Shown here: in pieces, positions 2,974-41,511 of the stretch
How the letters are laid out: the number at the start of each line of letters is the position of its first letter
How positions within the stretch are numbered: position 1 is the stretch's first letter
IMG/VR virus record: IMGVR_UViG_2802429229_000003
Strand: one strand, 5' to 3'
Length of the DNA: 41,511 bases
Source: a virus
Taxonomy: Duplodnaviria > Heunggongvirae > Uroviricota > Caudoviricetes
The notes under the pieces: generated by a model
Seen by the model: the letters and a program-made list of their open reading frames with translations, nothing else
Databases searched by the model: none
What the model was told of the DNA's origin: nothing
Translations under genes and position numbers: made by a program

Positions 2974-5900
2974 TTAACATTCCCCCATCACGTCGCATAT
3001 TTAACAGATTGCCCTGCACCCGCTGATCAACCATCCCCATAAGTGCTTTTATTGCCTGAGGGCCAATCTCTCCATTCTGGCCGTCATTTTGAATAGTGAT
3101 TTGGTATACAGGGGCATAGGTAATATCTCCGCCTCCATTACCACTTTTACTATTAATAGCTCTGACACCAAGAGAACCATCGGAAGTTCGTGTTAATGGC
3201 ATAATGGCTTCCGGTCCAGCCTCACCAAAAACACCAGCCCCTTTTGCAAAAGCAAAAAATTGCGGGGAATCATAAATACCGTTCGAATACGTGCTCAATG
3301 ACGGAGACTCATAAACACCGCCCTTTGCATTCGGAATAAATTTACTAATAGCACTCCCGATAGTTCCTAAAATCCCCCCAGAAGAACTGTTACTAATGCT
3401 GTCGAAAATCCCAGTAATTGAAGCCTTTAATGCTATTCGACTAAGATCCGAAATCACGGAAGTAGCGAAAGAACGAAAATTTGCCTTGCCTGTCGTGACA
3501 AAATCACCCAGCGCATCGGTCATTCCATCAAACATCTGAGTCGTGGTTGATTTTATCTGCTCACTGATATCCTTAGTGTCATCCAGCCAGTTATTGAATC
3601 CCTGGGAGGCACCACTAACCCAGTCTCCTGCCTGAATATCGAGCTGCTCGTTTTTCTGTCTGACAATTTCTTTTTCCCGTTCCAGAGCATCATTCAGAGC
3701 CTGCATTTTCTCTTGAAAAACATGATCTGACATTCCACGGGATTTATCTGCATAGTCACGTTCAAGTTGCAGACGCTGATTGTTATATCCATGTTCAATC
3801 CGCAGTAATTCCTGCTGGCGTTGCTGATTTTTATCGCCAACCCCATAACCAGCAATCTGAATATCATACCCCTGCTGACGATTATCAATCGAAGCCTGCA
3901 ATGAATCACGCCATGCTGTTATTTCGGCGGATTCCTTGATTAGCCTGTTATTTTTTTCAATCGCAACATTTTTCTCCATCAACGTGGTTATTTCTTCCCG
4001 GTGTAAGAGAAGCGATTTCTGATCCTGGGTTAATTTCGATGATGGTCGTGACTCTAGGTCGGCAATCCGCTGACGCCACTTAACCAGTTCCTGTTCAGAG
4101 GAACTTAATTTAACGGTCAACTCAGCTTGTGAACTTAGTAACGCATTCTGTTGATTCAGATGATCAATCATTCGTTGGGCTGCATCATCAGAATAATCTT
4201 TCGCCTTTGGTTGCTTTGGATCTTTATAACGCTCATTTATTTGAGCGATAAGATTATTATATTCTTCCTTTGAATACTGATTCTTTAGCTTTTCCAGTTT
4301 TGCAAGTTCACTAGCTCTCTGCTGCTCCCGGGTCTGATATTGTTTTGAAAAGGCATCTGCTCTCTGTCTGAGTTCAATTCCTTCCTGTTGTCGCTTGTTG
4401 TAATCGTTTATTGATGAATTTAGTACGTCCTGAGCAATTTTTTCTGCTTGAAGTACGCCCAATTGCTGCTTTAATCGTGCCAGCCTTTTATTTTGAGCTC
4501 CGCCATCTCCAATGCCACCTAACCCGAAAACTCCGGGTCGGGTATTTTTTTCTATTTCATCAATTTGACGGAGAACATCTGAGATTTTTTGATCAAGGGA
4601 GGCCTCACGGCCAATATCCAGCATGGAATCCCATGCCCATTTTGCGGAGTCTGCGACAGCTTTCCATGCAGTCTCAAGATAACCAAGATTTTCTTTAATC
4701 TGGTTGGTGCGCTGGATCATTGAGGATGAGTATTCTTCTGTCGCAATGCGGGCGGCCTCCTGCTGGTTCCCTTCATCCTGTAGCGCCTTAATCTGGTTAT
4801 AAGTCGCAAGTGTCAGAAAATGGTACTGATCATTAAGTTTTGATATGGCACTGACAGGATCCTTTGCAATTTCATTGAAGTCATTAACCAGTTGTTCGGT
4901 TGATATTCCTGTTACTTCGCTCGTTTTTACTATCGCTGTCGTCACTTGCTCCAGCGAACTGCTCGCTACCTTTCCCGAACGCACAAGCTGATTTAATACT
5001 GCCGCCGCAGCACCAGTTGTCGAATCAGCCGCATTCCCGGCACGTTGAGCTATATCGCCCAATTGCCCGCTGGTTGTCCCCAACTGATTTCCGGTAAGAA
5101 TAAGAGATTTATTAAATTCGTCCTGCTCCTGAGAGCCTTTATAGTAAGCCAGTCCTAAGACCCCAACGGCTGCTGCGGCCAGGGTAAAAGGATTAATTAA
5201 TCCCAGCACATAAGAACCTACACCTTTGATCGCCGGGCCAATCCCACCGAACATATCTTTTAGCTGGCCGCCCTGCTGCATTAACACCATAAATGGCGAC
5301 TGACCAGTGGACAACCCAACAACAATATCCGTCATTTGTGCAGGCAACATGCGCATAGCAAAAGCCGTTTGTTTTGCCGACATTCCGGTTTTGCTTAATT
5401 GTGATTGAGTAACCTCAAGCTCACTCCGCATAGCACGAAGTTTTCCAGAAAGCTCCTCATACATTTCAGGAGAAAGCATCCCCTTAGCTTTTGCTTCATT
5501 GAGCTGTTTCTGTTGTTCTACCAGACGATTAAAAGCAGTTCCGACAGGATCAAGTTGAGCAATCAGACGTTGCAAAGCAACAACCTGTTCATCATGCGCT
5601 TTTGCTGCTTCTCGCTCTGCCTGAGCCTCTCCAGTAAGCTCTCGCCGTGTTTCCTGTATTTTTCGGCTATAATTCTCAAACTGAGAACCATTTATTTTCC
5701 CGGATGCAAACGCAGCATTAAGTTCATCATGCTGTTGTTCAAGATTTCTTAGCGCCGCAGCCAGAGGGTCGATCTTGTCCAGCATTCTTTGAAAGGCCTG
5801 AGCCTGCGCTTCCTGCTGGGCGGCAGCAAGTTTTCCGGCCTTCTCGGCTTCTCTCTGCGCTTGCGCAACCCCGCTCAATTCCTCTGTGGTTTCATTAAGT

Positions 5901-16934: not shown

Positions 16935-17186
16935 TTAGTCCTGATTTTTATCCACCCTGAGTAGTTCGCGCAGAGCAAAGGCATCCCCTTTTCTGGCAAG
17001 CTTAAACAATGCCGCTCGTAACTCGGCTTCACCTTTCGCTCTGCCCTTACGGATGGCCGCATAAAAATCTGTCATTGCTTCCCGATTTTCTTTCAGTCGG
17101 TTCAGATCAACATCCAGAACGTCAGCGATTTGTTGTGCAGTCATCCGGCACGCTGCCAGAGACTCGACTTTCGAATACGGAATCAT
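16935..17186 (-). CDS. Hypothetical small protein upstream of the small terminase gene (69-83 aa depending on start)
   Basis: ORF with possible starts at 17186 (GGGGGTGA RBS) or 17144; no recognised motif. Confidence 0.4.
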   Translation of the reverse strand: MIPYSKVESLAACRMTAQQIADVLDVDLNRLKENREAMTDFYAAIRKGRAKGEAELRAALFKLARKGDAFALRELLRVDKNQD

Positions 17187-18054
17187 TTGTCACCCCCATT
17201 GATATGCAGGGTGTCTTCTTCCTGTATTTTTCGTGAAGGATTTTTACTGCAGCGTTGTTCCAGGTGACCTGATGGTGAATGCGTTTATGGCTGGCACCCA
17301 TCAGTGAGATTTTTACGCACGACGGCGCATACATGACGGAGTAAAAACTTTTAACGTAGGTTCCGGAATCCAGATACAGCTCGGTCATTCCGCCGCTGTT
17401 TTTCTGCGTCTGTTTCTGCCCTAACTGGACAGCACCGATCGTCATAAACAATTCACCACAGCGACCGAGATTCGTGTACGTATTCACATCCTCGTTAATG
17501 CGCCCCATGAATGAGAACGGTCGATCAACCGAACAGATAAAGCTGTTCATTGCCTTGCGTTTCACCCACGAAGCATGGCCGCCATTGTCACCAAGAAAAT
17601 CCCCGCCCTGCGACATAGCGATGGAAAGAGCAGGTATTGATTCGTAGTACGCCAGCATTTCAGAAAGGATCGCATCCAGTTTCCTTATCGGAAAATAGGC
17701 CTGGTCATAGTTGCGATCCACCCGAAACTGGAACTCGTGATAATCATCATCGAGCTGAATGAAGTATTTACACCCGACCAGTTTTGCCAGGTCGAAACAG
17801 GCATTACGGGCGTAAAAAATTGAGCGGCGGTCACAGAAATTATCGGCTTCGTCAAAACGACTGGCGATATCGGCTTTGGAAAACACCAGCACCTGTTCAC
17901 CAAATTCAGCCATGTACTGATGCCGTGTCTTATCTTCATCATCAACAACGATAAAAATTTTCCCGGTATAGCCAGCACGACGCAACGTCCGGTAAGTCAG
18001 AACTTTGTCCGGTCGCCCGTGAGTCAGAATAAAGGCGCAAAAATCATCACGCAT
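17122..18054 (-). CDS. Hypothetical protein with glycosyltransferase GT-A-like motif pattern, 310 aa (function uncertain)
   Basis: ATG at 18054 after GGAGGAGG RBS, overlapping the ParB-like stop (ATGCGTGA). Motif series AFILTHGRPD, KIFIVVDDED and YFIQLDDDYHEF parallels the beta1 / DxD pattern of GT-A transferases such as SpsA. Confidence 0.55.
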   Translation of the reverse strand: MRDDFCAFILTHGRPDKVLTYRTLRRAGYTGKIFIVVDDEDKTRHQYMAEFGEQVLVFSKADIASRFDEADNFCDRRSIFYARNACFDLAKLVGCKYFIQLDDDYHEFQFRVDRNYDQAYFPIRKLDAILSEMLAYYESIPALSIAMSQGGDFLGDNGGHASWVKRKAMNSFICSVDRPFSFMGRINEDVNTYTNLGRCGELFMTIGAVQLGQKQTQKNSGGMTELYLDSGTYVKSFYSVMYAPSCVKISLMGASHKRIHHQVTWNNAAVKILHEKYRKKTPCISMGVTNDSVFESRVSGSVPDDCTTNR

Positions 18055-18838
18055 ATTCCTCCTCCTCACCACCATGCATGATCTCCACCATGCGCTGCGT
18101 CATCCGGACAAATCCATTTTCAATAGCCTGCTGATAATCAATGATCACCAGCGCCGACTCCTCGAAAAAACACTGAATTTCAGAGGGGGCGTGAGCGTAA
18201 TAGTCCGCAATTCTGCTGAAATTAAACACCGTGTGACGTTCTGCCGCACACAGGAGGAATTTCTCAATATCAGGCTCAAGGGACGCCGAACGTATCCGGC
18301 TGATCAGCTCCTGAGTTTTCGTATCGTCGTACAGTTCACTGATATCCGGTTTACCGCCCGACGGCTCATAAACAGGCGTATCAATTTTCGTCGTATACGG
18401 CTCCTCCTCATTTCCTGTACCGGGCAAAACATCCGTCAACAGTTCATCAATTTCTGTCGGGATGAAGCCTGTCAGGGAGACATCAAAATCAGCATTGATT
18501 AGGTCCGACAGCTCCATCCGCAACAGATCTTCATCCCAGCCAGCATTCATCGGCAGGCGATTATCTGCCAGGCGGTACGCCTTTTTCTGCTCATCCGTCA
18601 GGCCAGACAGAACAATGACCGGAACAGAATCCATTTTGAGCATTTCAGCCGCCATAACACGACCGTGACCCGCAATAATTTCGCCCTTTTCGTCAATCAG
18701 CACCGGATTAGTCCAGCCGAATTGCTTAATACTTTCTACCAGTTGTGCCACCTGCTCAGTACTGTGCGTCCTGGCGTTGTGCGCATACGGTGACAATTCT
18801 TGTAATGGGCGATAGACTATCTTTAATTTCTCGCTCAT
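18047..18838 (-). CDS. ynaK: ParB-like nuclease domain protein (YnaK-like), 263 aa
   Basis: N-terminal region YRPLQELSPYAHNARTHSTEQVAQLVESIKQFGWTNPVLIDEKGEIIAGHGRVMAA has the ParB / sulfiredoxin GxGR signature; position matches ynaK next to trkG in Rac as I recall. Confidence 0.7.
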   Translation of the reverse strand: MSEKLKIVYRPLQELSPYAHNARTHSTEQVAQLVESIKQFGWTNPVLIDEKGEIIAGHGRVMAAEMLKMDSVPVIVLSGLTDEQKKAYRLADNRLPMNAGWDEDLLRMELSDLINADFDVSLTGFIPTEIDELLTDVLPGTGNEEEPYTTKIDTPVYEPSGGKPDISELYDDTKTQELISRIRSASLEPDIEKFLLCAAERHTVFNFSRIADYYAHAPSEIQCFFEESALVIIDYQQAIENGFVRMTQRMVEIMHGGEEEEYA

Positions 18839-18975: not shown

Positions 18976-20433
18976 TTAGGAGCGCCAAAAAAAACCTGAA
19001 AACAATATAATAACAGGATAAATTTCAAGGCGACCAAGAATCATAGCTATGCACATTAAACATTTTGCAATGTCATTAAGTACTCCGAATGACGATGCAG
19101 TAGCCCCAAAACCTAATCCCATATTATTAATACATGCAGCCACTGTTGCAAATGATGTAAGAAAATCATATCCCATACCATTTAACACCAGTATAAAAAA
19201 CACCGTAAAGAGAGTATAAAGAAAAAAGAAACTCCATACAGACCTCATTACACGATCTGTAACTATCTTCCCTCCTACATTTACACTCAACAACGCTCTG
19301 GGATGAGAAAGCTGATTTATCTCGTGTTTGCTTTGTTTGAAAAGTATAAGAAATCGAAGTGACTTAATTCCACCACAAGTTGAACCTATACATCCCCCAA
19401 AGAAACTTGACAACAGCAAAAATACTATCGTGTGCGTGGGCCAACTTGCATAATCCTGCGTAGCTAAACCATTATCAGTGAGCATGGAGCTGGCAAGAAA
19501 AAACGAATGAATAAAACTTCCATGCAAGTCATACATACCTATATGCCAGACCTGGAAAGAGGTAACAATGATCACCCCTAAGGCTATTAACAGAAAGAAA
19601 CGAAGTTCAATATCTCTGATTAAAGGTTTTATCGTTTTCCTGCTAATAACAATATACCAAAGAGTGAAGTTGAAAGCCGATAGCAGGGAAAAAGAACCAG
19701 CCACCAGCTCAACCAAATAGTTATTAAAATATCCGATACTCTCGCTATGAGTTGAGAAACCACCAAGCGAAACTGTGGAAATCCCGTGACAAATAGCATC
19801 AAACAAAGGCATTCCTGCAAGTCTATAACAGACAATACAAGCAATACCTAATAAAGAATAAGTTATCCACAGTGTCCGTGACGTATCGGCCAGGCGGGGA
19901 GTGAGTTTGTCATCCTTAAATGGCCCCGGCATTTCTGACTGATAAAGCTTTGCACCACCAATACCCAATAATGGCAATACAGCAACCGCCAGAACAATAA
20001 CTCCTAAACCACCTATAAAATTTAACTGTGACCGATAGTACAAATATGCCCGAGGTAATGAACTAACATCATCAATTACAGTTGCTCCTGTTGTTGTTAT
20101 TCCAGAAACCCCTTCAAACAGAGCATCAATGAACGTTAAATTAAGTTCTGAGTCAATCCATAAAGGGAATGCACTAATAACAGAAAACAAAATCCAAAAC
20201 ATTACAATTATAATAAACCCATCACGGGTACGTAATTGAATGCCAGATTTCTTAGTTGTATACCACGCTCCGCCACCAATGCAAAAAAATATAACGAAAG
20301 TTATAAAGAAAACGAACAGGCTTTTTTCTTTATAAAACAATGCTACAACCATTGGTGGCAACATTGAAAGACTATAGAGCCAAACCAGGAACCCACACAT
20401 ATGAGTAACAACTCTTACATGAGATGTATTCAT
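18976..20433 (-). CDS. trkG: Trk system potassium uptake protein TrkG (Rac prophage moron), 485 aa
   Basis: Polytopic membrane protein with repeated GGxK and Gly-rich pore-loop motifs; sequence from MNTSHVRVVTHMCGF matches my recollection of TrkG. AT-rich relative to flanking phage genes. Confidence 0.85.
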   Translation of the reverse strand: MNTSHVRVVTHMCGFLVWLYSLSMLPPMVVALFYKEKSLFVFFITFVIFFCIGGGAWYTTKKSGIQLRTRDGFIIIVMFWILFSVISAFPLWIDSELNLTFIDALFEGVSGITTTGATVIDDVSSLPRAYLYYRSQLNFIGGLGVIVLAVAVLPLLGIGGAKLYQSEMPGPFKDDKLTPRLADTSRTLWITYSLLGIACIVCYRLAGMPLFDAICHGISTVSLGGFSTHSESIGYFNNYLVELVAGSFSLLSAFNFTLWYIVISRKTIKPLIRDIELRFFLLIALGVIIVTSFQVWHIGMYDLHGSFIHSFFLASSMLTDNGLATQDYASWPTHTIVFLLLSSFFGGCIGSTCGGIKSLRFLILFKQSKHEINQLSHPRALLSVNVGGKIVTDRVMRSVWSFFFLYTLFTVFFILVLNGMGYDFLTSFATVAACINNMGLGFGATASSFGVLNDIAKCLMCIAMILGRLEIYPVIILFSGFFWRS

Positions 20434-20570
20434 ATCTAAATATTCTTTCAATTATAACCACCTTGCTGCAATATTATGATTATACTGTATAAAATTTAAC
20501 TCCTCTTAGATCTTACTTCACTGTTCCTTATGAAACAATCATCAAAATGAATCATATTGTAGTTAAGATT

Positions 20571-24889: not shown

Positions 24890-25045
24890 TTACTCCTCAG
24901 GTTCGTAAGCTGTGAAGACAGCGACCTCCGTCTGACCGGTTCGGATTCGCACCTCGCAGAGGTCTTTCCTCGTTACCAGTGCCGTCACTATGACGGTTAA
25001 ACAGATGACAATCAGTGCGACTAACATCGCCTTTTGCTGCTTCAT
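24890..25045 (-). CDS. hok: Hok/Gef-family type I toxin, 51 aa
   Basis: MKQQKAMLVALIVICLTVIVTALVTRKDLCEVRIRTGQTEVAVFTAYEPEE: N-terminal TM helix and conserved RKDLCEVRIRTGQTEVAVF core. Confidence 0.85.
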   Translation of the reverse strand: MKQQKAMLVALIVICLTVIVTALVTRKDLCEVRIRTGQTEVAVFTAYEPEE

Positions 25046-25102
25046 AGCCTGCTTCTCCTTGCCTTCCGGCGCGTAAGAGGCTAACCTACATGTGCAAAGC
25101 AT
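24890..25102 (-). CDS. mok-like in-frame upstream extension of hok, 70 aa
   Basis: In-frame ATG at 25102 gives MLCTCRLASYAPEGKEKQA then the Hok sequence, the same arrangement as chromosomal mok/hok loci. Confidence 0.5.
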   Translation of the reverse strand: MLCTCRLASYAPEGKEKQAMKQQKAMLVALIVICLTVIVTALVTRKDLCEVRIRTGQTEVAVFTAYEPEE

Positions 25103-25260
25103 GAAATTGGCCTCAGATTAATGTTAAGCGTCTTGCCGGACGCGTAATGTTATCTGGGGCTTTTCTCTATCTGCCGTTGGTGTTCATGCCCGAGGCAGAT
25201 AGCCTCAAGCACCCGCAGCAATTCTACTTAACCCCCGTCACCTCGCCAATATAAAATCAA

Positions 25261-25479: not shown

Positions 25480-25640
25480 CAGCACTTCCTTAAATGCTCT
25501 AAGTCAGAAACAAGCCAACATTTTAGTCCGCTTTGAGCGAAGAGCGGACGCTCGCATCTGTCCCAACACACTGAGGGCTTCACGAACACCTAGGTGTACT
25601 CGTCAACTGGGAAAAAGTCAGATTATCTGCGTAAGTTTCA

Positions 25641-25672
25641 GCGTAAAAATTGGGCACTATAAAAGTGCCCAA
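25641..25672 (-). terminator. Intrinsic terminator of the KAP NTPase gene (9-bp stem plus U5)
   Basis: Minus strand UUGGGCACU-uuuau-AGUGCCCAA followed by UUUUUACGC, starting about 22 nt after the KAP stop. Confidence 0.6.
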
Positions 25673-25693
25673 ACTGTAGAAAAATACATAATG

Positions 25694-28600
25694 CTATGTA
25701 TCTGAGCCAAACATAGAGCGCCGCCTTGTTATTTTATAATAAGTGGGATTTTCATTATCCACCTCAAAATCAGAGAAGAAGTGGTTATCTCTTAATGCTG
25801 TTAATAAACTTTGATTAGTTGAATCAACTTCAATTTTAGGTTTGCCTCGCCCCAAAATTTTACTGAACTCCGATAAACCAAGCAGATCAAGATACTCTTT
25901 GCAAGTCGTCTTACTCAAATCCTTACCCGGCAACAAAGCGATTAGCAGTGCTATTTTATTCTGCATATTCAGTCCCTCTGCGACAAACAGGTTTTTTAGT
26001 AACGGTTCAGAAACATCATTAGGACTTGCTATCAATGCTGATATATCCTGTATTGCTCGACTCAAGATGAGCGACTGAGTAGAGGTTCCCCAAGTTTTAT
26101 AAGATGACGTCAAGATTAGAAGTTCATCTGGTTTAAAATTATTTTCTAAAATATAGTCATTAACGACCTGAGAGTAATTCTTACTATAAATAGCCAACGG
26201 AGTTTTAACAAACTCGAGTAGCTTAACTTTCAAATCATCATCAACTTTCCAAGAAAGTATTGATATAGCCTCATCCAAAATAAAGTTATCAATCGTCATT
26301 AATTCAACGTATGCCCTGATATTCTTATGAATATAATAGGAAAGTTGCTCTGAATAGTTATCTCGTATGAAATTAAGTGGCGCAACATTCATACGAATAA
26401 TATTTTTATCCACTAATATTTTGAACTTATCACTCGCGATATTACTAGCGCTAAAGGATGTTTTACAAATAATATTTAGTGAGCAAATTAATTTTTCATA
26501 TTTATCATTTGATAAATCATTACAGATAACAATCGATTTAAATAATTTACCTTTAAGCTCGTTATCAATATTAATATTTTGAAAATTCAGGTCTACATCA
26601 GTTCTATTGATAAATTCGATAAGTGAGTCATCCAGTCCATCAACATGTTCAAAATAAGAGACAATATTTTCCTCAGAGCACACTGCTCTATCTTTATCCA
26701 ACAAAGATGACCATAAAGATTCGCTCTCAACCTCACTCAGAGATGTCACGAAAGTTTGCAAAGCGTTTATATACTGGCCTTTTTGTTCATCAGATATTCC
26801 CTCATTATTAAGAACGGATAAAACAATGGATTCATCATCCACGATTGAACCATCACAACTAGATAAAACCATATCCAGATAGTCCCTAATATGGTTATTA
26901 ACATAACTAGCCAAGGGAGAATCAGGTTGTGACATCACTAGTGTATAGTTCTTATGGCGAATATCATCTTCACTATTAAGCGTGTAAACCTTACTCAGCA
27001 TTAAGGTCAGGTTGGAAAAATTAATATCATAAAGTGAATGCTGGTAAACCGCATCAAAGAGTACTTTATTTGCGTTTTCAAATTTAATACTGACAAAAGA
27101 GACGTTAAGCAACTTAAAACCACTAATTAATTTGTCAACCTTCGGTTCTGATATTGCTAAATAACCTGCCGAATCAGAGATGTAATCAGTCAGACAATCA
27201 TCAATATTAATGGCCTCGATGGCGTCATTGGCAGAATAATAAAACGTGCCTATAGAGTAGAGTTTAACCCAATCAGCAGAAAATTCACTCTCTGTCAGCG
27301 CATAAGAAAAAAACTCAGGCCACTGTGTATTTAATCGATTAATGAAGACAGGCTGAGCCCTCTCAGTTTCAAAGTAACCACGAATAAACTCAACTCTTCT
27401 ATCTTTTCTTAGTTGTTTGAATAAACGTTTTATTAAGTTTACCTGGGCTGGCGTTTGAAGCAGATAAGCTAATAAATCAAAATTAAGCGCCTCTTCCTGT
27501 TCAAAATCCACTTCTCGAAGGCGGGCAACGACCAGCTTGGGGTTCTTGAGTTGATAAGTGAACTCTTTGCCTTTTTGATCGGTAATGCTGCGTAAAAACA
27601 TCTTATCAATTCGACTCAGGCTATTTTCATAAAAATAGGTCATATAGTCGGTATAGGTTTCATCAATATAACCATCACGAATAAGGTATTTAAGCAAGTC
27701 AAAATACTCACTGCTTTTTATTTCATTAAAGTCTCTTTCCTCTCCAATTTCATTGGTATAGGTGAGTTTAAATATTTCATCAATGTTTTCTCTAGTTATT
27801 ACTTCTTTAAGTCTTTTGTTTCTAAAATCAACCAAACTTTCTCTTGATCTTGATATAAGCTCATTAATTTCTTCTATTTTACCATTAAATTTATTTTCAA
27901 CACTTTCTTTTCTAGCCGCCCTTCTCTTTGCTATATCAGCTTTCTCAGCCTGATTATAGTGAGGATGATTATTATATCTAGATAATTCCTTATCGTATAT
28001 AGCATCAACCTCCTGACTAGAGTTGAGTATTTCATCATTGATTGCCTCAATCTCTTTTTTTCTATCTCTAATATCTTTTTCTATTTTCTTTATTTCTTCA
28101 ATAATAAGGTTGTCTTTTTCACTAAATATGGTATAAACCATACCTTGATTAAGTTGCAACTCACTAAAATCTCTTGGGAAAATATTCTTATAGGCAATAA
28201 TGGCCAACATTTTATTACAGTCAAGTTCTGTCGTGTTTAATTTGTTATAATAAATTTGAAATTCGTTATAAATATTCTTCAATATTCTCATATCATCAAT
28301 ATATAAAGACATCCCTTGTAGAAATCTTTCATTGAACAACTTGAGAATACCACCACCATCAAAATGTGTGATAAACTGATCGTAAGAGTTAGAACTATCA
28401 ACAACAGGAATAACTGGAATGATATAATCAAAGAATTTGGTTCTATCCTTCGAAATGAAGATATCATCACGAAGCAAGTAAATAAAACGTAACGTCGATT
28501 TCTTGTGCCCTGCTGTGTCCCGTTGAATATTAACCAGTCTGTTAACCTCATGAAGACGTTCAAAGATGTTATTACTATTAAAACGGTCCATGTCTTCAAA

Positions 28601-29326
28601 AACAATGGCATCAGCATCAACGTTCTCGAAAAGGTACAATACTTCATTTAAATATCTATCGAAATAAGACTCGTTACTTTCTTCAAAAATCTCTATTTCA
28701 TTACCCTGTAAATTTATTTTCTTAAGAACATTACGATTCTTTTGGGTTTTTATTAACTTGTAAATGAAAATACAAGATAGGATAGTACATATAAACCCAC
28801 TAATTAAAAGCGTATCGTATTTAGTTGATAATGTAAGTAGTGTCTTTATATTACCTTCAGATAAAAGTGAAACAAACTTTTCCCACTTATTAAATAGCGT
28901 GATATGTAGTATCATAGCGATAAATAACACCGTAAAGATGGTGTTTATCACAATGTTGTTAGTTTTTATTTTTTTCTTTACTTTAAAATGTGTCTGGGGA
29001 ATATCATCAGCATTAATTTGGTGAATTAACTGGTTAAGAACTTTACCTTCTAACGCGGTTTCATTTATATCTTTACTTGGTTCATTAGTTTCAGCTTCCT
29101 CAATCGATCTGAAATGAGCAAGTGAGATATGAACAAACTTTATATTTGAATGACTTTTCTTATAGGATTCGATAAGACTACTTTTTCCTGCGCTATATTG
29201 CCCTGATATCGCAACATTTTTTAGATCGTTATTGGCAAAAACAAAATCTATCGCATTTTTATATACACCCAGCTCAACATCGCTGAACGGCGTTAACTTT
29301 TGAAATTTATAGCTATCATCACTCAT
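25694..29326 (-). CDS. KAP-family P-loop NTPase, 1210 aa, with two transmembrane helices inserted between Walker A and Walker B; AT-rich moron
   Basis: Walker A GQYSAGKSS (aa 42-50, nt 29177-29203); hydrophobic helices at aa ~123-145 and ~172-192; Walker B DAIVFEDMDR (aa 239-248, nt 28583-28612); about 950-aa C-terminal region with a coiled-coil-like stretch. RBS GGGAAGGGA before ATG at 29326. Sampled lines about 25-30% GC. Confidence 0.8.
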   Translation of the reverse strand: MSDDSYKFQKLTPFSDVELGVYKNAIDFVFANNDLKNVAISGQYSAGKSSLIESYKKSHSNIKFVHISLAHFRSIEEAETNEPSKDINETALEGKVLNQLIHQINADDIPQTHFKVKKKIKTNNIVINTIFTVLFIAMILHITLFNKWEKFVSLLSEGNIKTLLTLSTKYDTLLISGFICTILSCIFIYKLIKTQKNRNVLKKINLQGNEIEIFEESNESYFDRYLNEVLYLFENVDADAIVFEDMDRFNSNNIFERLHEVNRLVNIQRDTAGHKKSTLRFIYLLRDDIFISKDRTKFFDYIIPVIPVVDSSNSYDQFITHFDGGGILKLFNERFLQGMSLYIDDMRILKNIYNEFQIYYNKLNTTELDCNKMLAIIAYKNIFPRDFSELQLNQGMVYTIFSEKDNLIIEEIKKIEKDIRDRKKEIEAINDEILNSSQEVDAIYDKELSRYNNHPHYNQAEKADIAKRRAARKESVENKFNGKIEEINELISRSRESLVDFRNKRLKEVITRENIDEIFKLTYTNEIGEERDFNEIKSSEYFDLLKYLIRDGYIDETYTDYMTYFYENSLSRIDKMFLRSITDQKGKEFTYQLKNPKLVVARLREVDFEQEEALNFDLLAYLLQTPAQVNLIKRLFKQLRKDRRVEFIRGYFETERAQPVFINRLNTQWPEFFSYALTESEFSADWVKLYSIGTFYYSANDAIEAINIDDCLTDYISDSAGYLAISEPKVDKLISGFKLLNVSFVSIKFENANKVLFDAVYQHSLYDINFSNLTLMLSKVYTLNSEDDIRHKNYTLVMSQPDSPLASYVNNHIRDYLDMVLSSCDGSIVDDESIVLSVLNNEGISDEQKGQYINALQTFVTSLSEVESESLWSSLLDKDRAVCSEENIVSYFEHVDGLDDSLIEFINRTDVDLNFQNINIDNELKGKLFKSIVICNDLSNDKYEKLICSLNIICKTSFSASNIASDKFKILVDKNIIRMNVAPLNFIRDNYSEQLSYYIHKNIRAYVELMTIDNFILDEAISILSWKVDDDLKVKLLEFVKTPLAIYSKNYSQVVNDYILENNFKPDELLILTSSYKTWGTSTQSLILSRAIQDISALIASPNDVSEPLLKNLFVAEGLNMQNKIALLIALLPGKDLSKTTCKEYLDLLGLSEFSKILGRGKPKIEVDSTNQSLLTALRDNHFFSDFEVDNENPTYYKITRRRSMFGSDT

Positions 29327-29732
29327 TGATATCCCTTCCCAATCTTCACCGAGAGAGCTGGCTTTCGGAGTTAATCAAACAAAATCATGCAGATAAAATT
29401 TCGCCTTATTATAGCAGACACAACTGCAAAGATTAGCTAAAGCCTCGTTGTTTTCTTCATCTATCCCTATAATTTTACACTACAGTTAGCACTTACTATA
29501 CCTGAAAGCTTTGCTCGTAAAGAGCACAATCGCAAGTCAGCAAAGCACGACTTTGCAATCGAGCGCCGCTAAAACAGTGCTGAATCGCTACGACTTAGGC
29601 AGCCATCTTATCGGTTGGCAGATAATTTCTAACTTCCGCTTCTGGCACAAAGCGGACAACCACGCTAGCTCTCCCCTGTGCCAGAAAAATGTCAATTTAC
29701 ATATGAACTAATGCTCTTTGATCTAGTAACGT

Positions 29733-34178: not shown

Positions 34179-34334
34179 ATGCAAAAAATCGACCTCGGCA
34201 ACAACGAATCCCTGGTGTGCGGCGTGTTCCCCAACCAGGATGGAACGTTCACTGCCATGACGTATACCAAAAGCAAAACATTTAAAACCGAAACTGGTGC
34301 GCGCCGATGGTTGGAGAAGCATACAGTAAGCTAA
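34179..34334 (+). CDS. ydaF: YdaF-like small protein, 51 aa
   Basis: ATG at 34179; MQKIDLGNNESLVCGVFPNQDGTFTAMTYTKSKTFKTETGARRWLEKHTVS. Below the ORF track cutoff. Confidence 0.5.
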   Translation: MQKIDLGNNESLVCGVFPNQDGTFTAMTYTKSKTFKTETGARRWLEKHTVS

Positions 34335-34819
34335 CGATTAAAACGTCTACTCCTGCTGTTCCAGAATAACTTCATAAAATGGGAGTATTTTTCGGTGACG
34401 AGATAATAAGAACAGTTTGCGCTATCACTCTGATGTTGAATGATGCCCTTCCGTTCTAATTTTTTCATAACCGGGTTACGGCAAGGAGAAGTGATAATAA
34501 GATTTCCTGTTTTAAGGAAATCTTTAAATACAGCGATTTCTTTCTCAGATAAACGAAGCAATACTCGTTGCTCTGGTAGTAATGAATAATGCTTTTGAAT
34601 ATGTGCTCGCAATCTTGAGAAGGAAATGGCGACCACGAAAGAAAAGGCAAAAACGATAATCTGAAAGAGCCAAGGTATTTCAGTATAAGCATTGAATGCG
34701 ACAGTAAACTCTTTCGGTATCAGCCAGAGAGTGAGACCAAAAATGATAATCGTATACATAAGTATTTCGAGTGGCTCGTTAGCAAAAAGTTTCAACAATG
34801 GAGTAAATACATCCAACAT
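34331..34819 (-). CDS. sieB: Superinfection exclusion protein SieB, 162 aa
   Basis: ATG at 34819 (MLDVFTPLLKLFANEPLEILMYTIIIFGLTLWLI...); two N-terminal hydrophobic helices; length matches Rac SieB. Confidence 0.8.
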   Translation of the reverse strand: MLDVFTPLLKLFANEPLEILMYTIIIFGLTLWLIPKEFTVAFNAYTEIPWLFQIIVFAFSFVVAISFSRLRAHIQKHYSLLPEQRVLLRLSEKEIAVFKDFLKTGNLIITSPCRNPVMKKLERKGIIQHQSDSANCSYYLVTEKYSHFMKLFWNSRSRRFNR

Positions 34820-35037
34820 ATCAATAACTCTCAACTGTAAGGGTATTGAAATGTTAACACAAGCTCTCGCTGTAGGGGTATAGCCGAGACCACCGAAGCC
34901 CGGAGGTGGTGAAATAAAACCGGGCACAACACGAAGGCGCATTTCCGATATCCATAAAGAGTCGGTCTTGTCTGTTAAATTTAAATGGTGGGAGTGCGCC
35001 TCCGGTTGTAAATAACGACATTGCTGTGTGTAGTCCT

Positions 35038-36103: not shown

Positions 36104-38725
36104 ATGAGCACAAAACCACTCTTCCTGTTACGGAAAGCGAAAAAATCATCCGGTGAACCTGACGTCGTCCTGTGGGCAAGCAACGATTTTGAATCGACCT
36201 GTGCCACTCTGGACTACCTGATCGTTAAGTCAGGTAAAAAACTGAGCAGCTATTTTAAAGCTGTTGCCACGAATTTTCCTGTCGTTAATGACCTGCCCGC
36301 TGAAGGTGAGATCGATTTTACCTGGAGTGAACGCTATCAACTCAGCAAAGACTCCATGACATGGGAACTAAAACCGGGAGCAGCACCAGACAACGCTCAC
36401 TATCAAGGCAATACCAACGTCAACGGCGAAGACATGACTGAGATTGAGGAGAATATGCTACTCCCAATTTCTGGCCAGGAACTGCCCATTCGTTGGCTTG
36501 CTCAACACGGCAGCGAAAAACCGGTAACGCACGTTTCACGCGACGGACTCCAGGCATTACACATTGCTCGGGCTGAAGAACTACCGGCTGTTACTGCCCT
36601 GGCTGTTTCCCACAAAACCAGCCTGCTCGACCCGCTGGAAATTCGCGAACTCCACAAACTGGTTCGTGACACTGACAAAGTTTTCCCTAATCCTGGTAAT
36701 TCAAACCTGGGACTGATAACTGCTTTTTTCGAAGCATACCTGAACGCTGACTACACCGATCGAGGACTGCTGACAAAAGAGTGGATGAAGGGTAATCGTG
36801 TTTCACACATCACTCGCACGGCTTCCGGTGCTAATGCTGGCGGCGGAAACCTCACCGATCGCGGCGAAGGTTTCGTACACGATCTGACGTCACTGGCGCG
36901 CGACGTAGCCACTGGCGTACTGGCCCGTTCAATGGATCTGGACATCTATAACCTTCATCCGGCACACGCTAAACGCATTGAGGAAATTATCGCTGAAAAT
37001 AAACCGCCCTTTTCTGTTTTCCGCGACAAATTCATCACCATGCCTGGCGGGCTGGATTATTCCCGCGCCATCGTGGTTGCGTCCGTAAAAGAAGCACCAA
37101 TTGGGATCGAGGTCATCCCCGCGCACGTCACTGAATATCTGAACAAAGTACTGACTGAAACCGATCATGCCAACCCTGATCCGGAAATCGTGGATATTGC
37201 CTGCGGTCGCTCCTCTGCCCCGATGCCGCAGCGAGTAACAGAAGAAGGAAAACAGGATGATGAAGAAAAACCGCAACCATCTGGAACAACGGCAGTTGAA
37301 CAGGGAGAGGCTGAAACAATGGAACCGGACGCAACTGAACATCATCAGGACACGCAGCCGCTGGATGCTCAGTCACAGGTAAATTCTGTTGATGCGAAAT
37401 ATCAGGAACTGCGGGCAGAACTCCATGAAGCCCGGAAAAACATTCCATCAAAAAATCCTGTCGATGACGATAAATTGCTTGCTGCATCACGTGGTGAATT
37501 TGTTGACGGAATTAGCGACCCGAACAATCCGAAATGGGTTAAGGGGATCCAGACTCGCGATTCTGTGTACCAGAACCAGCCAGAAACGGAACAAAACACG
37601 CCAGAAACGGAAAAAACCAGCCCGGATGTGAAACAACCTGAGCCAGTAGTGCAACAGGAACCGGAAATAGTCTGCAATGCCTGCGGTCAGACTGGCGGGG
37701 ATAACTGCCCTGACTGTGGTGCGGTGATGGGCGACGCAACATACCAGGAAACATTCGATGAAGAGAATCAGGTTGAAGCTAAGGAAAATGATCCGGAGGA
37801 AATGGAAGGCGCTGAACATCCGCACAATGAGAATGCAGGCAGCGATCCGCATCACGATTGCAGTGATGAAACTGGCGAAGTCGCAGATCCCGTAATCGTA
37901 GAAGACATAGAGCCAGGTATTTATTACGGAATTTCGAATGAGAATTACCACGCGGGTCCCGGTGTCAGTAAGTCTCAGCTCGACGACATTGCTGATACTC
38001 CGGCACTGTATTTGTGGCGTAAAAATGCCCCCGTGGACACCACAAAGACAAAAACGCTCGATTTAGGAACCGCTTTCCACTGCCGGGTACTTGAACCGGA
38101 AGAATTCAGTAACCGCTTTATCGTAGCACCTGAATTTAACCGCCGTACAAACGCCGGAAAAGAAGAAGAGAAAGCGTTTCTGATGGAATGCGCAAGCACA
38201 GGAAAAACGGTTATCACTGCGGAAGAAGGCTGGAAAATTGAACTCATGTATCAAAGCGTTATGGCTTTGCCGCTGGGGCAATGGCTTGTTGAAAGCGCCG
38301 GACACGCTGAATCATCAATTTACTGGGAAGATCCTGAAACAGGAATTTTGTGTCGGTGCCGTCCGGACAAAATTATCCCTGAATTTCACTGGATTATGGA
38401 CGTGAAAACTACGGCGGATATTCAACGATTCAAAACCGCTTATTACGACTACCGCTATCACGTTCAGGATGCATTCTACAGTGACGGTTATGAAGCACAG
38501 TTTGGAGTGCAGCCAACTTTCGTTTTTCTGGTTGCCAGCACAACTATTGAATGCGGACGTTATCCGGTTGAAATTTTCATGATGGGCGAAGAAGCAAAAC
38601 TGGCAGGTCAACAGGAATATCACCGCAATCTGCGAACCCTGTCTGACTGCCTGAATACCGATGAATGGCCAGCTATTAAGACATTATCACTGCCCCGCTG
38701 GGCTAAGGAATATGCAAATGACTAA
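36104..38725 (+). CDS. recE: Exodeoxyribonuclease VIII (RecE), 873 aa
   Basis: Long ORF with acidic low-complexity middle region; C-terminal nuclease region matches RecE as recalled; stop overlaps the recT start. Confidence 0.85.
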
Positions 38726-39527
38726 GCAACCACCAATCGCAAAAGCCGATCTGCAAAAAACTCAGGGAAACCGTGCACCAGCAGCAGTTAAAAATAGCGA
38801 CGTGATTAGTTTTATTAACCAGCCATCAATGAAAGAGCAACTGGCAGCAGCTCTTCCACGCCATATGACGGCTGAACGTATGATCCGTATCGCCACCACA
38901 GAAATTCGTAAAGTTCCGGCGTTAGGAAACTGTGACACTATGAGTTTTGTCAGTGCGATCGTACAGTGTTCACAGCTCGGACTTGAGCCAGGTAGCGCCC
39001 TCGGTCATGCATATTTACTGCCTTTTGGTAATAAAAACGAAAAGAGCGGTAAAAAGAACGTTCAGCTAATCATTGGCTATCGCGGCATGATTGATCTGGC
39101 TCGCCGTTCTGGTCAAATCGCCAGCCTGTCAGCCCGTGTTGTCCGTGAAGGTGACGAGTTTAGCTTCGAATTTGGCCTTGATGAAAAGTTAATACACCGC
39201 CCGGGAGAAAACGAAGATGCCCCGGTTACCCACGTCTATGCTGTCGCAAGACTGAAAGACGGAGGTACTCAGTTTGAAGTTATGACGCGCAAACAGATTG
39301 AGCTGGTGCGCAGCCTGAGTAAAGCTGGTAATAACGGGCCGTGGGTAACTCACTGGGAAGAAATGGCAAAGAAAACGGCTATTCGTCGCCTGTTCAAATA
39401 TTTGCCCGTATCAATTGAGATCCAGCGTGCAGTATCAATGGATGAAAAGGAACCACTGACAATCGATCCTGCAGATTCCTCTGTATTAACCGGGGAATAC
39501 AGTGTAATCGATAATTCAGAGGAATAA
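38718..39527 (+). CDS. recT: Recombinase RecT (single-strand annealing protein), 269 aa
   Basis: ATG at 38718 overlapping the recE stop; [47 protein letters not shown]... matches RecT as recalled. Confidence 0.85.
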
Positions 39528-40275: not shown

Positions 40276-41511
40276 ATGTCTAAATTACCAACAGGTGTCG
40301 AGATTAGAGGTAGATACATTCGCATCTGGTTCATGTTTCGAGGAAAACGATGTCGGGAAACATTAAAAGGCTGGGAGATTACAAACAGTAATATTAAAAA
40401 GGCCGGAAATTTAAGAGCGCTGATAGTTCATGAAATAAACTCCGGTGAATTTGAGTATTTAAGACGTTTTCCCCAGTCCAGCACTGGGCCAAAAATGGTG
40501 ACAACGAGAGTCATAAAAACGTTCGGAGAGCTTTGTGATATCTGGACAAAAATTAAAGAGACAGAGTTAACAACAAACACAATGAAGAAAACGAAATCAC
40601 AATTAAAAACACTCAGAATAATAATTTGTGAAAGTACCCCGATATCACATATTCGTTATAGCGATATCTTAAACTACCGGAATGAACTGCTGCATGGAGA
40701 AACGCTTTACCTGGATAATCCAAGATCCAACAAAAAAGGAAGAACCGTGCGCACAGTTGATAACTATATCGCCCTGCTCTGTTCGCTGTTGCGTTTTGCG
40801 TATCAGTCGGGATTTATATCAACCAAACCATTTGAAGGAGTAAAAAAATTACAGCGAAACAGAATAAAGCCTGATCCGTTATCTAAAACAGAATTCAATG
40901 CATTAATGGAAAGTGAAAAAGGACAGAGCCAGAACTTGTGGAAATTTGCCGTTTACTCAGGACTTCGTCACGGGGAACTGGCAGCTCTGGCGTGGGAGGA
41001 TGTGGATCTCGAAAAGGGAATAGTGAATGTCAGAAGAAACCTGACGATACTTGATATGTTCGGTCCCCCAAAAACAAATGCCGGGATCCGAACAGTAACA
41101 CTACTGCAGCCTGCTCTTGAAGCACTGAAGGAGCAATACAAACTGACCGGGCATCATCGCAAAAGCGAAATCACCTTTTATCATCGGGAGTACGGCAGAA
41201 CCGAAAAGCAAAAACTGCATTTTGTTTTCATGCCCAGGGTGTGTAACGGAAAACAAAAACCTTATTACTCGGTAAGCAGTTTGGGGGCAAGGTGGAATGC
41301 AGCAGTAAAACGTGCTGGTATTCGCCGCCGTAATCCGTACCATACGCGACATACTTTTGCCTGCTGGCTGTTGACGGCAGGAGCGAACCCGGCATTTATA
41401 GCCAGCCAAATGGGGCATGAAACTGCGCAGATGGTGTATGAAATTTACGGTATGTGGATTGATGACATGAACGACGAACAGATAGCCATGTTGAATGCGC
41501 GGTTATCGTAG
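40276..41511 (+). CDS. intR: Tyrosine integrase (IntR-like), 411 aa
   Basis: C-terminal catalytic region with R...HxxR...Y (NPYHTRHTFACWLLTAG...QMGHETAQMVYEIYGMWI); stop at the last base of the window. Confidence 0.85.
   Translation: MSKLPTGVEIRGRYIRIWFMFRGKRCRETLKGWEITNSNIKKAGNLRALIVHEINSGEFEYLRRFPQSSTGPKMVTTRVIKTFGELCDIWTKIKETELTTNTMKKTKSQLKTLRIIICESTPISHIRYSDILNYRNELLHGETLYLDNPRSNKKGRTVRTVDNYIALLCSLLRFAYQSGFISTKPFEGVKKLQRNRIKPDPLSKTEFNALMESEKGQSQNLWKFAVYSGLRHGELAALAWEDVDLEKGIVNVRRNLTILDMFGPPKTNAGIRTVTLLQPALEALKEQYKLTGHHRKSEITFYHREYGRTEKQKLHFVFMPRVCNGKQKPYYSVSSLGARWNAAVKRAGIRRRNPYHTRHTFACWLLTAGANPAFIASQMGHETAQMVYEIYGMWIDDMNDEQIAMLNARLS

Follow-up and report, generated by a model that had tools for sequence, protein, structure and literature searches.

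The 41,511-nucleotide Caudoviricetes record IMGVR_UViG_2802429229_000003, here called the window, carries an AT-rich gene (25694-29326) for a 1210-amino-acid (aa) P-loop nucleoside triphosphatase (NTPase) with two predicted membrane helices. This gene is very probably a divergent member of the Tmn family, a self-contained anti-phage sensor-effector that travels on a mobile 4.1-kb cassette and sits here in a Rac-like prophage. Tmn (“transmembrane NTPase”) is a single-gene anti-phage system reported, according to the papers that cite it, by Gao et al. 2020, and characterised in PMC13001434 (a 2026 preprint), PMC11846954 and 10.1101/2022.08.21.504612. An initial annotation of the window, made from its letters, had proposed a defence role for the gene and had named no validated defence system on this architecture. 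Tmn is one: it is validated, it has a profile in PADLOC, and NCBI names the F-plasmid protein WP_251122276.1 (1271 aa) “anti-phage transmembrane ATPase”. The defence hypothesis itself is backed by homology to this validated system and by the cargo that other elements carry in the same slot.

The family assignment starts from the N-terminal domain. The Pfam profile for YobI-like P-loop NTPases (PF20693) aligns over its full length (1-363 of 363) to aa 22-398, with an expectation value (E) of 1.7e-122 and 409.9 bits against a gathering cut-off of 27. A Kyte-Doolittle scan of the whole protein (19-aa window, threshold 1.6) finds two hydrophobic segments only, both between Walker A K48 and Walker B D245, so that both predicted transmembrane (TM) helices are inserted in the P-loop domain, as in the YobI family. 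The AlphaFold2 (AF2) model, built for aa 11-1210 from a 66-sequence family alignment, shows an alpha/beta NTPase broken by two long helices at the same hydrophobic segments, and the two helices inside the NTPase core that the initial annotation had described are borne out by both approaches. The K-rich stretch HFKVKKKIK precedes helix 1 and fits a cytoplasmic N-side; the K/R-rich KTQKNRNVLKK after helix 2 fits a cytoplasmic C-side.

Strict membership of the KAP family, also proposed at the outset, does not hold, as KAP_NTPase (PF07693) is absent among the Pfam matches at E<=1. The literature has applied both the KAP and the YobI label to Tmn, which was first described as a KAP NTPase, and recent work sets YobI, with two TM helices within the P-loop domain, apart from KAP proper. 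KAP NTPases (Kidins220/ARMS, PifA; Aravind et al. 2004, by way of papers citing it) are likewise membrane-associated, defence-linked P-loop NTPases with alpha-helical repeat extensions, and recent work has demonstrated defence of Enterococcus by proteins with a KAP domain; what separates the 1210-aa protein from them is the missing KAP_NTPase match. The YobI profile, named after Bacillus subtilis YobI, is shared in full and covers the N-terminal 400 aa only, being silent on the arms and on function. In RefSeq a product that differs at a single residue (1 aa), WP_001278661.1, carries the name “YobI family P-loop NTPase” or is called hypothetical. Profile searches of NCBIfam and PHROGs with the protein gave no match, and a literature search for the accession WP_001278661 found nothing. 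Matches to PADLOC LeoA and Pfam Dynamin_N covered only the P-loop and were set aside.

The link to Tmn rests on comparisons of increasing reach. The PADLOC Tmn profile (PDLC02220) matches the protein with E 2e-66, and a second stretch, at profile positions 539-709, matches with E 4.6e-13. BLASTP against F-plasmid Tmn detects 27% identity over aa 4-453 and a motif match at aa 540-612, with no similarity detected beyond aa 612. The family alignment holds 66 full-length relatives, made up of enterobacterial orthologues at 92-97% identity together with relatives from Fusobacterium, Cetobacterium, Ruminococcus and metagenomes at 36-52%; when it is compared with F-plasmid Tmn by hhalign, the match has a probability of 100% and E 1.5e-51 and spans 941 columns, to about aa 970. 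On these alignments homology to Tmn appears secure and reaches far into the C-terminal part.

Residues that matter for function are retained. Tmn-25, which comes from Escherichia coli ECOR25, needs G66/K67, Y262, D276/R279, N297, K325/F326 and R374 for defence, and also F506 and Y541/R544 in its proximal arm (PMC13001434). All nine essential NTPase residues are kept, as G47, K48, Y231, D245, R248, N266, K297, F298 and R347, and all nine are invariant across the 66-member family. G47/K48 align with G66/K67, whose mutation abolishes defence in Tmn-25, and the Walker B residues D245/R248 align with D276/R279. In the proximal arm, R544 is kept as R472.

The overall layout points the same way. Like Tmn, the protein is one large polypeptide (about 1200-1270 aa) in which Walker A, two TM helices and Walker B follow in that order, with a proximal coiled coil bearing a GY..(D/T).Y..Y motif and a distal alpha-solenoid behind them; like Tmn, it has no conserved partner genes and is borne on mobile elements. 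Unlike F-plasmid Tmn, it is carried by prophages and chromosomal islands, at a GC content of 33%. Avs and other bacterial STAND NTPases differ in another respect, since the 1210-aa protein has no separate effector domain and its membrane NTPase is the proposed effector; the oligomers differ as well, a decamer in Tmn-25 and tetramers in Avs.

The two arms account for most of the protein beyond the NTPase domain. In the AF2 model, which has a mean predicted local distance difference test score (pLDDT) of 82 and about 90 over aa 600-1200, four long helices at aa about 404-501 correspond to the Tmn proximal arm. They confirm a coiled-coil-like stretch suspected in the initial annotation; its further statement, that the C-terminal ~950 residues hold no motif that could be named, is not borne out. 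Foldseek matches for the distal arm are all ARM/HEAT proteins, weak ones with a best E of 6.9e-4. The model thus predicts a coiled coil followed by a distal ARM/HEAT-like alpha-solenoid, as membership of Tmn requires, and the distal arm is presumed to be the region that senses the trigger. When the distal 570 aa were compared by phmmer with 1.84 billion cluster representatives, 1270 proteins matched at E<=1e-3, 342 of them at E<=1e-30. Among the 150 best matches listed, the aligned region is the C-terminal end of proteins mostly about 1200 aa in length, the shorter ones being probably fragments; a large subfamily of the same architecture therefore has this type of distal arm.

Several observations weigh against placing the gene in Tmn or against carrying the Tmn mechanism over to it. 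The predicted template modelling score (pTM) of the AF2 model is 0.41, which makes the relative arrangement of the domains unreliable. Of the 1273 positions in the PADLOC Tmn profile, the protein matches just 27-474 and 539-709 (about 49%), and the distal 570 aa alone give no PADLOC match. Proteins with less than 50% profile coverage were removed from the published Tmn phylogeny, and since the coverage here falls just below that filter, the protein may, going by its sequence, lie outside the catalogued family. Its identity to those Tmn proteins with experimental characterisation that were compared is just 27%, in the N-terminal 450 aa. In the proximal arm, Y541 of Tmn-25 is R469 here (Y in 56 of the 66 family sequences), and F506 falls in a segment that this subfamily lacks. 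The mechanistic model rests on a single preprint (PMC13001434) with an 11.6 Å map. Finally, a gene this rich in AT may be silenced in E. coli.

How would such a protein act? Tmn-25 is reported to be a decameric membrane complex that senses T2 RIIB through cytosolic alpha-helical arms; once triggered, it turns over more ATP and exports Mg2+, and the resulting plasmolysis arrests the phage, while the collapse in ATP activates Gabija and Septu (PMC13001434). By homology, the 1210-aa protein would enter the inner membrane through its TM hairpin, leaving both termini, the NTPase and the arms in the cytoplasm, and would oligomerise there. Its distal and proximal arms would bind an early phage protein, as those of Tmn-25 bind T2 RIIB, and trigger binding would raise ATP turnover and, coupled with it, bring Mg2+ export and a depletion of ATP. 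The cell would then plasmolyse and phage development would stall, sometimes reversibly. These details, which follow the Tmn-25 model, are held with lower confidence than the family and the defence role. Could RIIB also be the trigger here? The distal arm is unrecognisably different in sequence from that of clade-I Tmn, so the trigger and the phage range are expected to differ, and the trigger is probably not RIIB.

The pattern of substitution is in keeping with a sensor at the C-terminus. Against the Klebsiella orthologue, the ratio of nonsynonymous to synonymous substitution rates (dN/dS) is 0.26 overall, 0.12 over aa 1-400 and 0.10 over aa 401-640, but 0.48 in the distal arm. As judged from these ratios, purifying selection acts on a working enzyme with a faster-evolving presumed sensor. 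In Tmn, too, variability is concentrated in the C-terminal region, which sets phage specificity.

Copies of the protein with 92-100% identity occur in Escherichia, Shigella, Klebsiella, Serratia, Yersinia, Pectobacterium, Enterobacter and Morganella. In E. coli the gene is uncommon: of 5426 complete genomes, 32 have 80% or more of the locus at an identity of at least 99%. No INPHARED phage record carries it. In strain NN5 (NZ_CP126348.1) the match to the locus is split in three by the IS5-family elements ISKpn26 and IS903B. Outside the enterobacteria the highest identities, about 50-52%, occur in gut Firmicutes and metagenomes, for example in Ruminococcus sp. Marseille-P6503. The best full-length relative in the plasmid collection is from Fusobacterium vincentii SB055 (locus L002, 5977-9699; 36% identity, 99% coverage), in a record filed in PLSDB as a 2.1-Mb “plasmid” that is evidently a mislabelled chromosome.

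Base composition points to an origin elsewhere. The GC content of the gene is 32.7% (30% at third codon positions) against 46.9% in the remainder of the window; the AT-richness pointed out in the initial annotation stands, and its figures, 25-30% for the gene and about 50% for the backbone, are both off. Its proposal of horizontal acquisition is supported, and the Fusobacterium and Firmicutes relatives fit a low-GC source. The open reading frame (ORF) and the Walker A and Walker B nucleotides agree exactly with recomputed positions. Also in place are the control elements that it had listed, a ~400-bp upstream region, a ribosome-binding site (RBS) and a terminator of the gene's own. The upstream intergenic region measures 406 bp (29327-29732), a Shine-Dalgarno-like GGGAAGGGA ends 5 nt ahead of the ATG, and a hairpin with a T-run follows the gene. 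That promoter and terminator make the gene self-contained is likewise supported, the promoter being a motif picked out by eye, which a promoter scan that required a -35 hexamer did not return.

Comparison of neighbourhoods defines the mobile unit. A 4.1-kb cassette (window about 25526-29657) recurs in five settings at 97-99.8% nucleotide identity: the Rac-like prophage of the window; a Qin-like prophage of strain E21845/O/A, where an IS3 element lies between the gene and hok (L001, 18183-19345); a non-prophage island of E. coli 2018-02-2CC (L004, NZ_AP021896.1 598837-642903), at 99.8% identity; a CP4-like island near cadC; and Klebsiella integrative islands, where it adjoins a methylase/HNH pair and an IS110 element. 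The three E. coli coding sequences compared are 2-3 nt apart, and their flanks are 88-93% identical or unrelated. The five neighbourhoods have just the cassette in common, as expected of a self-contained single-gene system, and Tmn has been reported without any conserved operon. All contexts examined have an intact ORF. In the 2018-02-2CC island the cassette directly adjoins an ABC-three-component-system protein and an AAA ATPase, with Hachiman (HamA and a DEAD/DEAH-box helicase) a few kb away. The type I toxin-antitoxin locus hok/sok is absent beside the gene in three of the five contexts (L004, L005-L008, L011), and hundreds of prophages have it without the NTPase gene; it is prophage backbone, incidental to the NTPase gene.

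The limits of the cassette are marked by a pair of 24-nt palindromes, A and B (Table 1), at which homology both to the other cassette contexts and to prophages with other cargo breaks. The motif GTCCGCT-N10-AGCGGAC, allowed up to two mismatches, has two matches in the window, A and B themselves, against 0.09 expected. Where a prophage has other cargo between hokD and DUF977, both palindromes are still there, and homology to the window is lost precisely in the interval that they enclose. In IMG/VR, an exact scan for the palindrome found at least 120 loci, whose 10-nt centres fall into two families, A (GTCCGCT-yTGAGCGArr-AGCGGAC) and B (GTCCGCT-yyTGGCACAr-AGCGGAC). The order A-cargo-B is consistent, with 45 clean cases of 0.4-4.1 kb and GC 0.31-0.49. 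Cassettes can be stacked, and the 66-nt junction between them then consists of B, 18 semi-conserved nt and A; there are 23 distinct junctions of this kind, arrays reach 3-4 cassettes, and one such junction parts the NTPase cassette from its neighbouring unit in the 2018-02-2CC island (19885-19950 of L004). An exact scan for the composite junction (27 specified bases, one genome per species, about 100,000 species) gave 35 loci, all in Enterobacterales bar one short contig labelled Veillonella. A relaxed search for the loop motifs was too noisy for use. Further palindromes were seen at 3637-3660 and 4645-4668 of locus L009, and in L023, L066, L104, L140 and L142, among other loci.

The cargo between these palindromes is rich in defence genes. 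It includes a complete type III-A retron, PD-T7-1, PDC-S35, a pAgo-associated nuclease and NsnA, besides HNH nucleases and proteins with TIR, SIR2, HEPN, GmrSD, deaminase and NUDIX domains. Among the larger cargo proteins, about half have no PADLOC match. The pattern provides independent evidence, from context, that the NTPase gene sits in a defence-gene slot. A broader proposal is tentative: the gene may be one cargo of a palindrome-delimited cassette-exchange platform found at several hotspots across Enterobacterales, in islands and in prophages of lambdoid and P2-like type.

What the palindromes do is a separate matter. As a sequence pattern they are well supported and unexplained. They are candidates for portable homology arms used by phage recombinases, for sites of a site- or structure-specific enzyme, or for insulators at the transcript level; RecE/RecT of the prophage is a short-homology recombination system that could act on them. 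The genes that flank the cassettes are heterogeneous (tail-fibre assembly, integrases, DUF968, DUF1627, DUF977, P2-type tail genes), and the arrays show no link to any one recombinase family. A likeness to integron cassettes is apparent, as these too have short imperfect palindromes (attC) at the junctions between promoter-poor or self-contained cargo in tandem arrays. The defence-enriched cargo adds to it, and so does folding: as single-stranded DNA, one strand of the 66-nt composite junction can fold into a single long, imperfect hairpin (-16.4 kcal/mol, z -3.8), the other strand giving a weaker fold (-10.1 kcal/mol, z -1.5). Unlike in integrons, there is no match between the arms, GTCCGCT/AGCGGAC, and RYYYAAC/GTTRRRY, the core of attC, no IntI integrase occurs in the 25 flanking families listed, and covariation in both the two-hairpin and the long-hairpin model shows no excess above shuffles that would back the folded structure. 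Rfam has no family for the palindromes (its sole match is sok), and literature searches with the sequence strings and for integron-like or moron/stem-loop elements found no description of them.

Is defence against phages the main job of the gene? A YobI-family membrane NTPase might instead serve chiefly in the competition and maintenance of mobile elements, excluding rival plasmids or prophages or stabilising its own element. Plasmid tmn lies in the leading region of conjugative plasmids and has been proposed to aid plasmid maintenance in conflicts between mobile genetic elements, and the NTPase cassette is always found on mobile elements. All Tmn homologues tested so far nevertheless restrict phages, the slot holds canonical anti-phage systems in other elements, and the distal arm outpaces the other parts of the protein in its evolution, as a sensor caught in an arms race should, which leaves this explanation improbable.

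The gene could also be a passenger of foreign origin, silent or in decay, that at present does nothing for E. coli. A GC content of 32.7% in a host of about 50% fits H-NS-type silencing, the gene is rare, and the copy in NN5 is disrupted by insertion sequences. Against decay stand the intact ORFs, protein identity of 92-100% across at least eight genera, the low dN/dS of the protein and of its catalytic core in particular, the retention of all catalytic residues, and an RBS, promoter-like motif and terminator of its own; a passenger without function is hence quite improbable.

More doubtful is a superinfection-exclusion (Sie) protein that blocks the entry of phage DNA at the inner membrane without sensing anything inside the cell. 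This would suit a predicted membrane protein encoded by a prophage that also carries SieB, but about 1000 of the 1210 residues are predicted to be cytoplasmic and the loop between the TM helices has only ~25 aa, the homologue Tmn-25 acts after early gene expression through RIIB sensing, and the need for a conserved ATPase core is atypical of Sie proteins; the idea is very unlikely to be right. Last, the two-part abortive-infection module with hok that the initial annotation implied, suggested by the position of hok/sok ~600 bp downstream on the same strand, is extremely improbable and is rejected on comparative grounds, since the absence of hok from three of five contexts (the E. coli island and the Klebsiella islands among them) and its frequency without the gene rule out a hok-NTPase module, conserved co-occurrence being absent, and, besides, hok lies outside the cassette boundary at 25526-25549, occurs at 92-93% identity in prophages without the NTPase gene, is parted from that gene by IS3 in E21845/O/A, and Tmn functions as a single gene.

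If the gene is a divergent Tmn, the known family is extended by a subfamily that prophages and islands carry and whose sensor arm is distinct, partly covered by current defence-finder profiles and nearly identical across at least eight enterobacterial genera. Such a subfamily could broaden the range of known Tmn triggers and bears on how general the plasmolysis mechanism is. For phage therapy it would be one more restriction determinant, which in annotation pipelines goes under no other name than “hypothetical” or “YobI family”. The palindromes may matter more than the gene, as they give base-pair-exact cassette limits, mark a defence hotspot and offer a handle on uncharacterised cargo. Were they real recombination sites or homology arms for RecET, they would point to integron-like shuffling of immune genes among phages, and they would serve as a sequence tag for new defence genes.

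Table 1. Features of the NTPase gene, its cassette and the surrounding prophage (positions in the window)
Feature	Position	Strand	Detail
Tmn-like NTPase gene	25694..29326	-	ORF, 1210 aa, ATG start
Walker A GQYSAGKSS (K48), aa 42-50	29177..29203	-	
Predicted TM helix 1, about aa 124-146	28889..28957	-	hydropathy peak 2.29; AF2 helix
Predicted TM helix 2, about aa 172-192	28751..28813	-	hydropathy peak 2.16; AF2 helix
Walker B DAIVFEDMDR (D245, R248), aa 239-248	28583..28612	-	
Proximal arm, aa about 400-640	27407..28129	-	long-helix coiled coil and conserved GYIDETYxDYMTYFYENSLS motif
Distal arm, aa 641-1210	25697..27406	-	predicted alpha-solenoid; ~50 short helices in AF2
Extended -10 promoter-like motif TGcTATAAT	29408..29416	-	consensus match, by eye only
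Intrinsic-terminator-like GC-rich hairpin and T-run	25650..25672	-	22 nt past the NTPase stop codon
Boundary palindrome A	25526..25549	+	GTCCGCT-TTGAGCGAAG-AGCGGAC
Boundary palindrome B	29634..29657	+	tTCCGCT-TCTGGCACAA-AGCGGAC
hok/sok type I toxin-antitoxin, complete	24890-25214	-	Pfam HOK_GEF E 1.6e-23
SieB superinfection-exclusion homologue	34331-34942	-	
RecE (Exonuc_VIII and PDDEXK domain) and RecT	36104-39527	+	
Integrase	40276-41511	+	

The prophage that carries the gene is Rac-like, because RecE, RecT, SieB, TrkH/TrkG, YdaT and an integrase are found elsewhere in the window; with SieB it has a second exclusion gene. The immediate surroundings agree with the initial description of a place between the replication and nin modules, beside hok: the upstream neighbours are DUF1376, a DnaC/IstB-like gene, DUF1627 and DUF977, and the downstream ones hok/sok (the Rfam sok match scores 111 bits at 25040-25214), DUF1367, YbcO and a Q-like gene. 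Farther away, at 17122-18838 on the minus strand, two adjacent ORFs have matches to TET-associated glycosyltransferase (TAGT, E 3.8e-35) and to the N-terminal domain of ParB; the TrkH/TrkG homologue (18976-20451) is their neighbour. Here the Rac-like prophage may have a module for DNA modification or against restriction.

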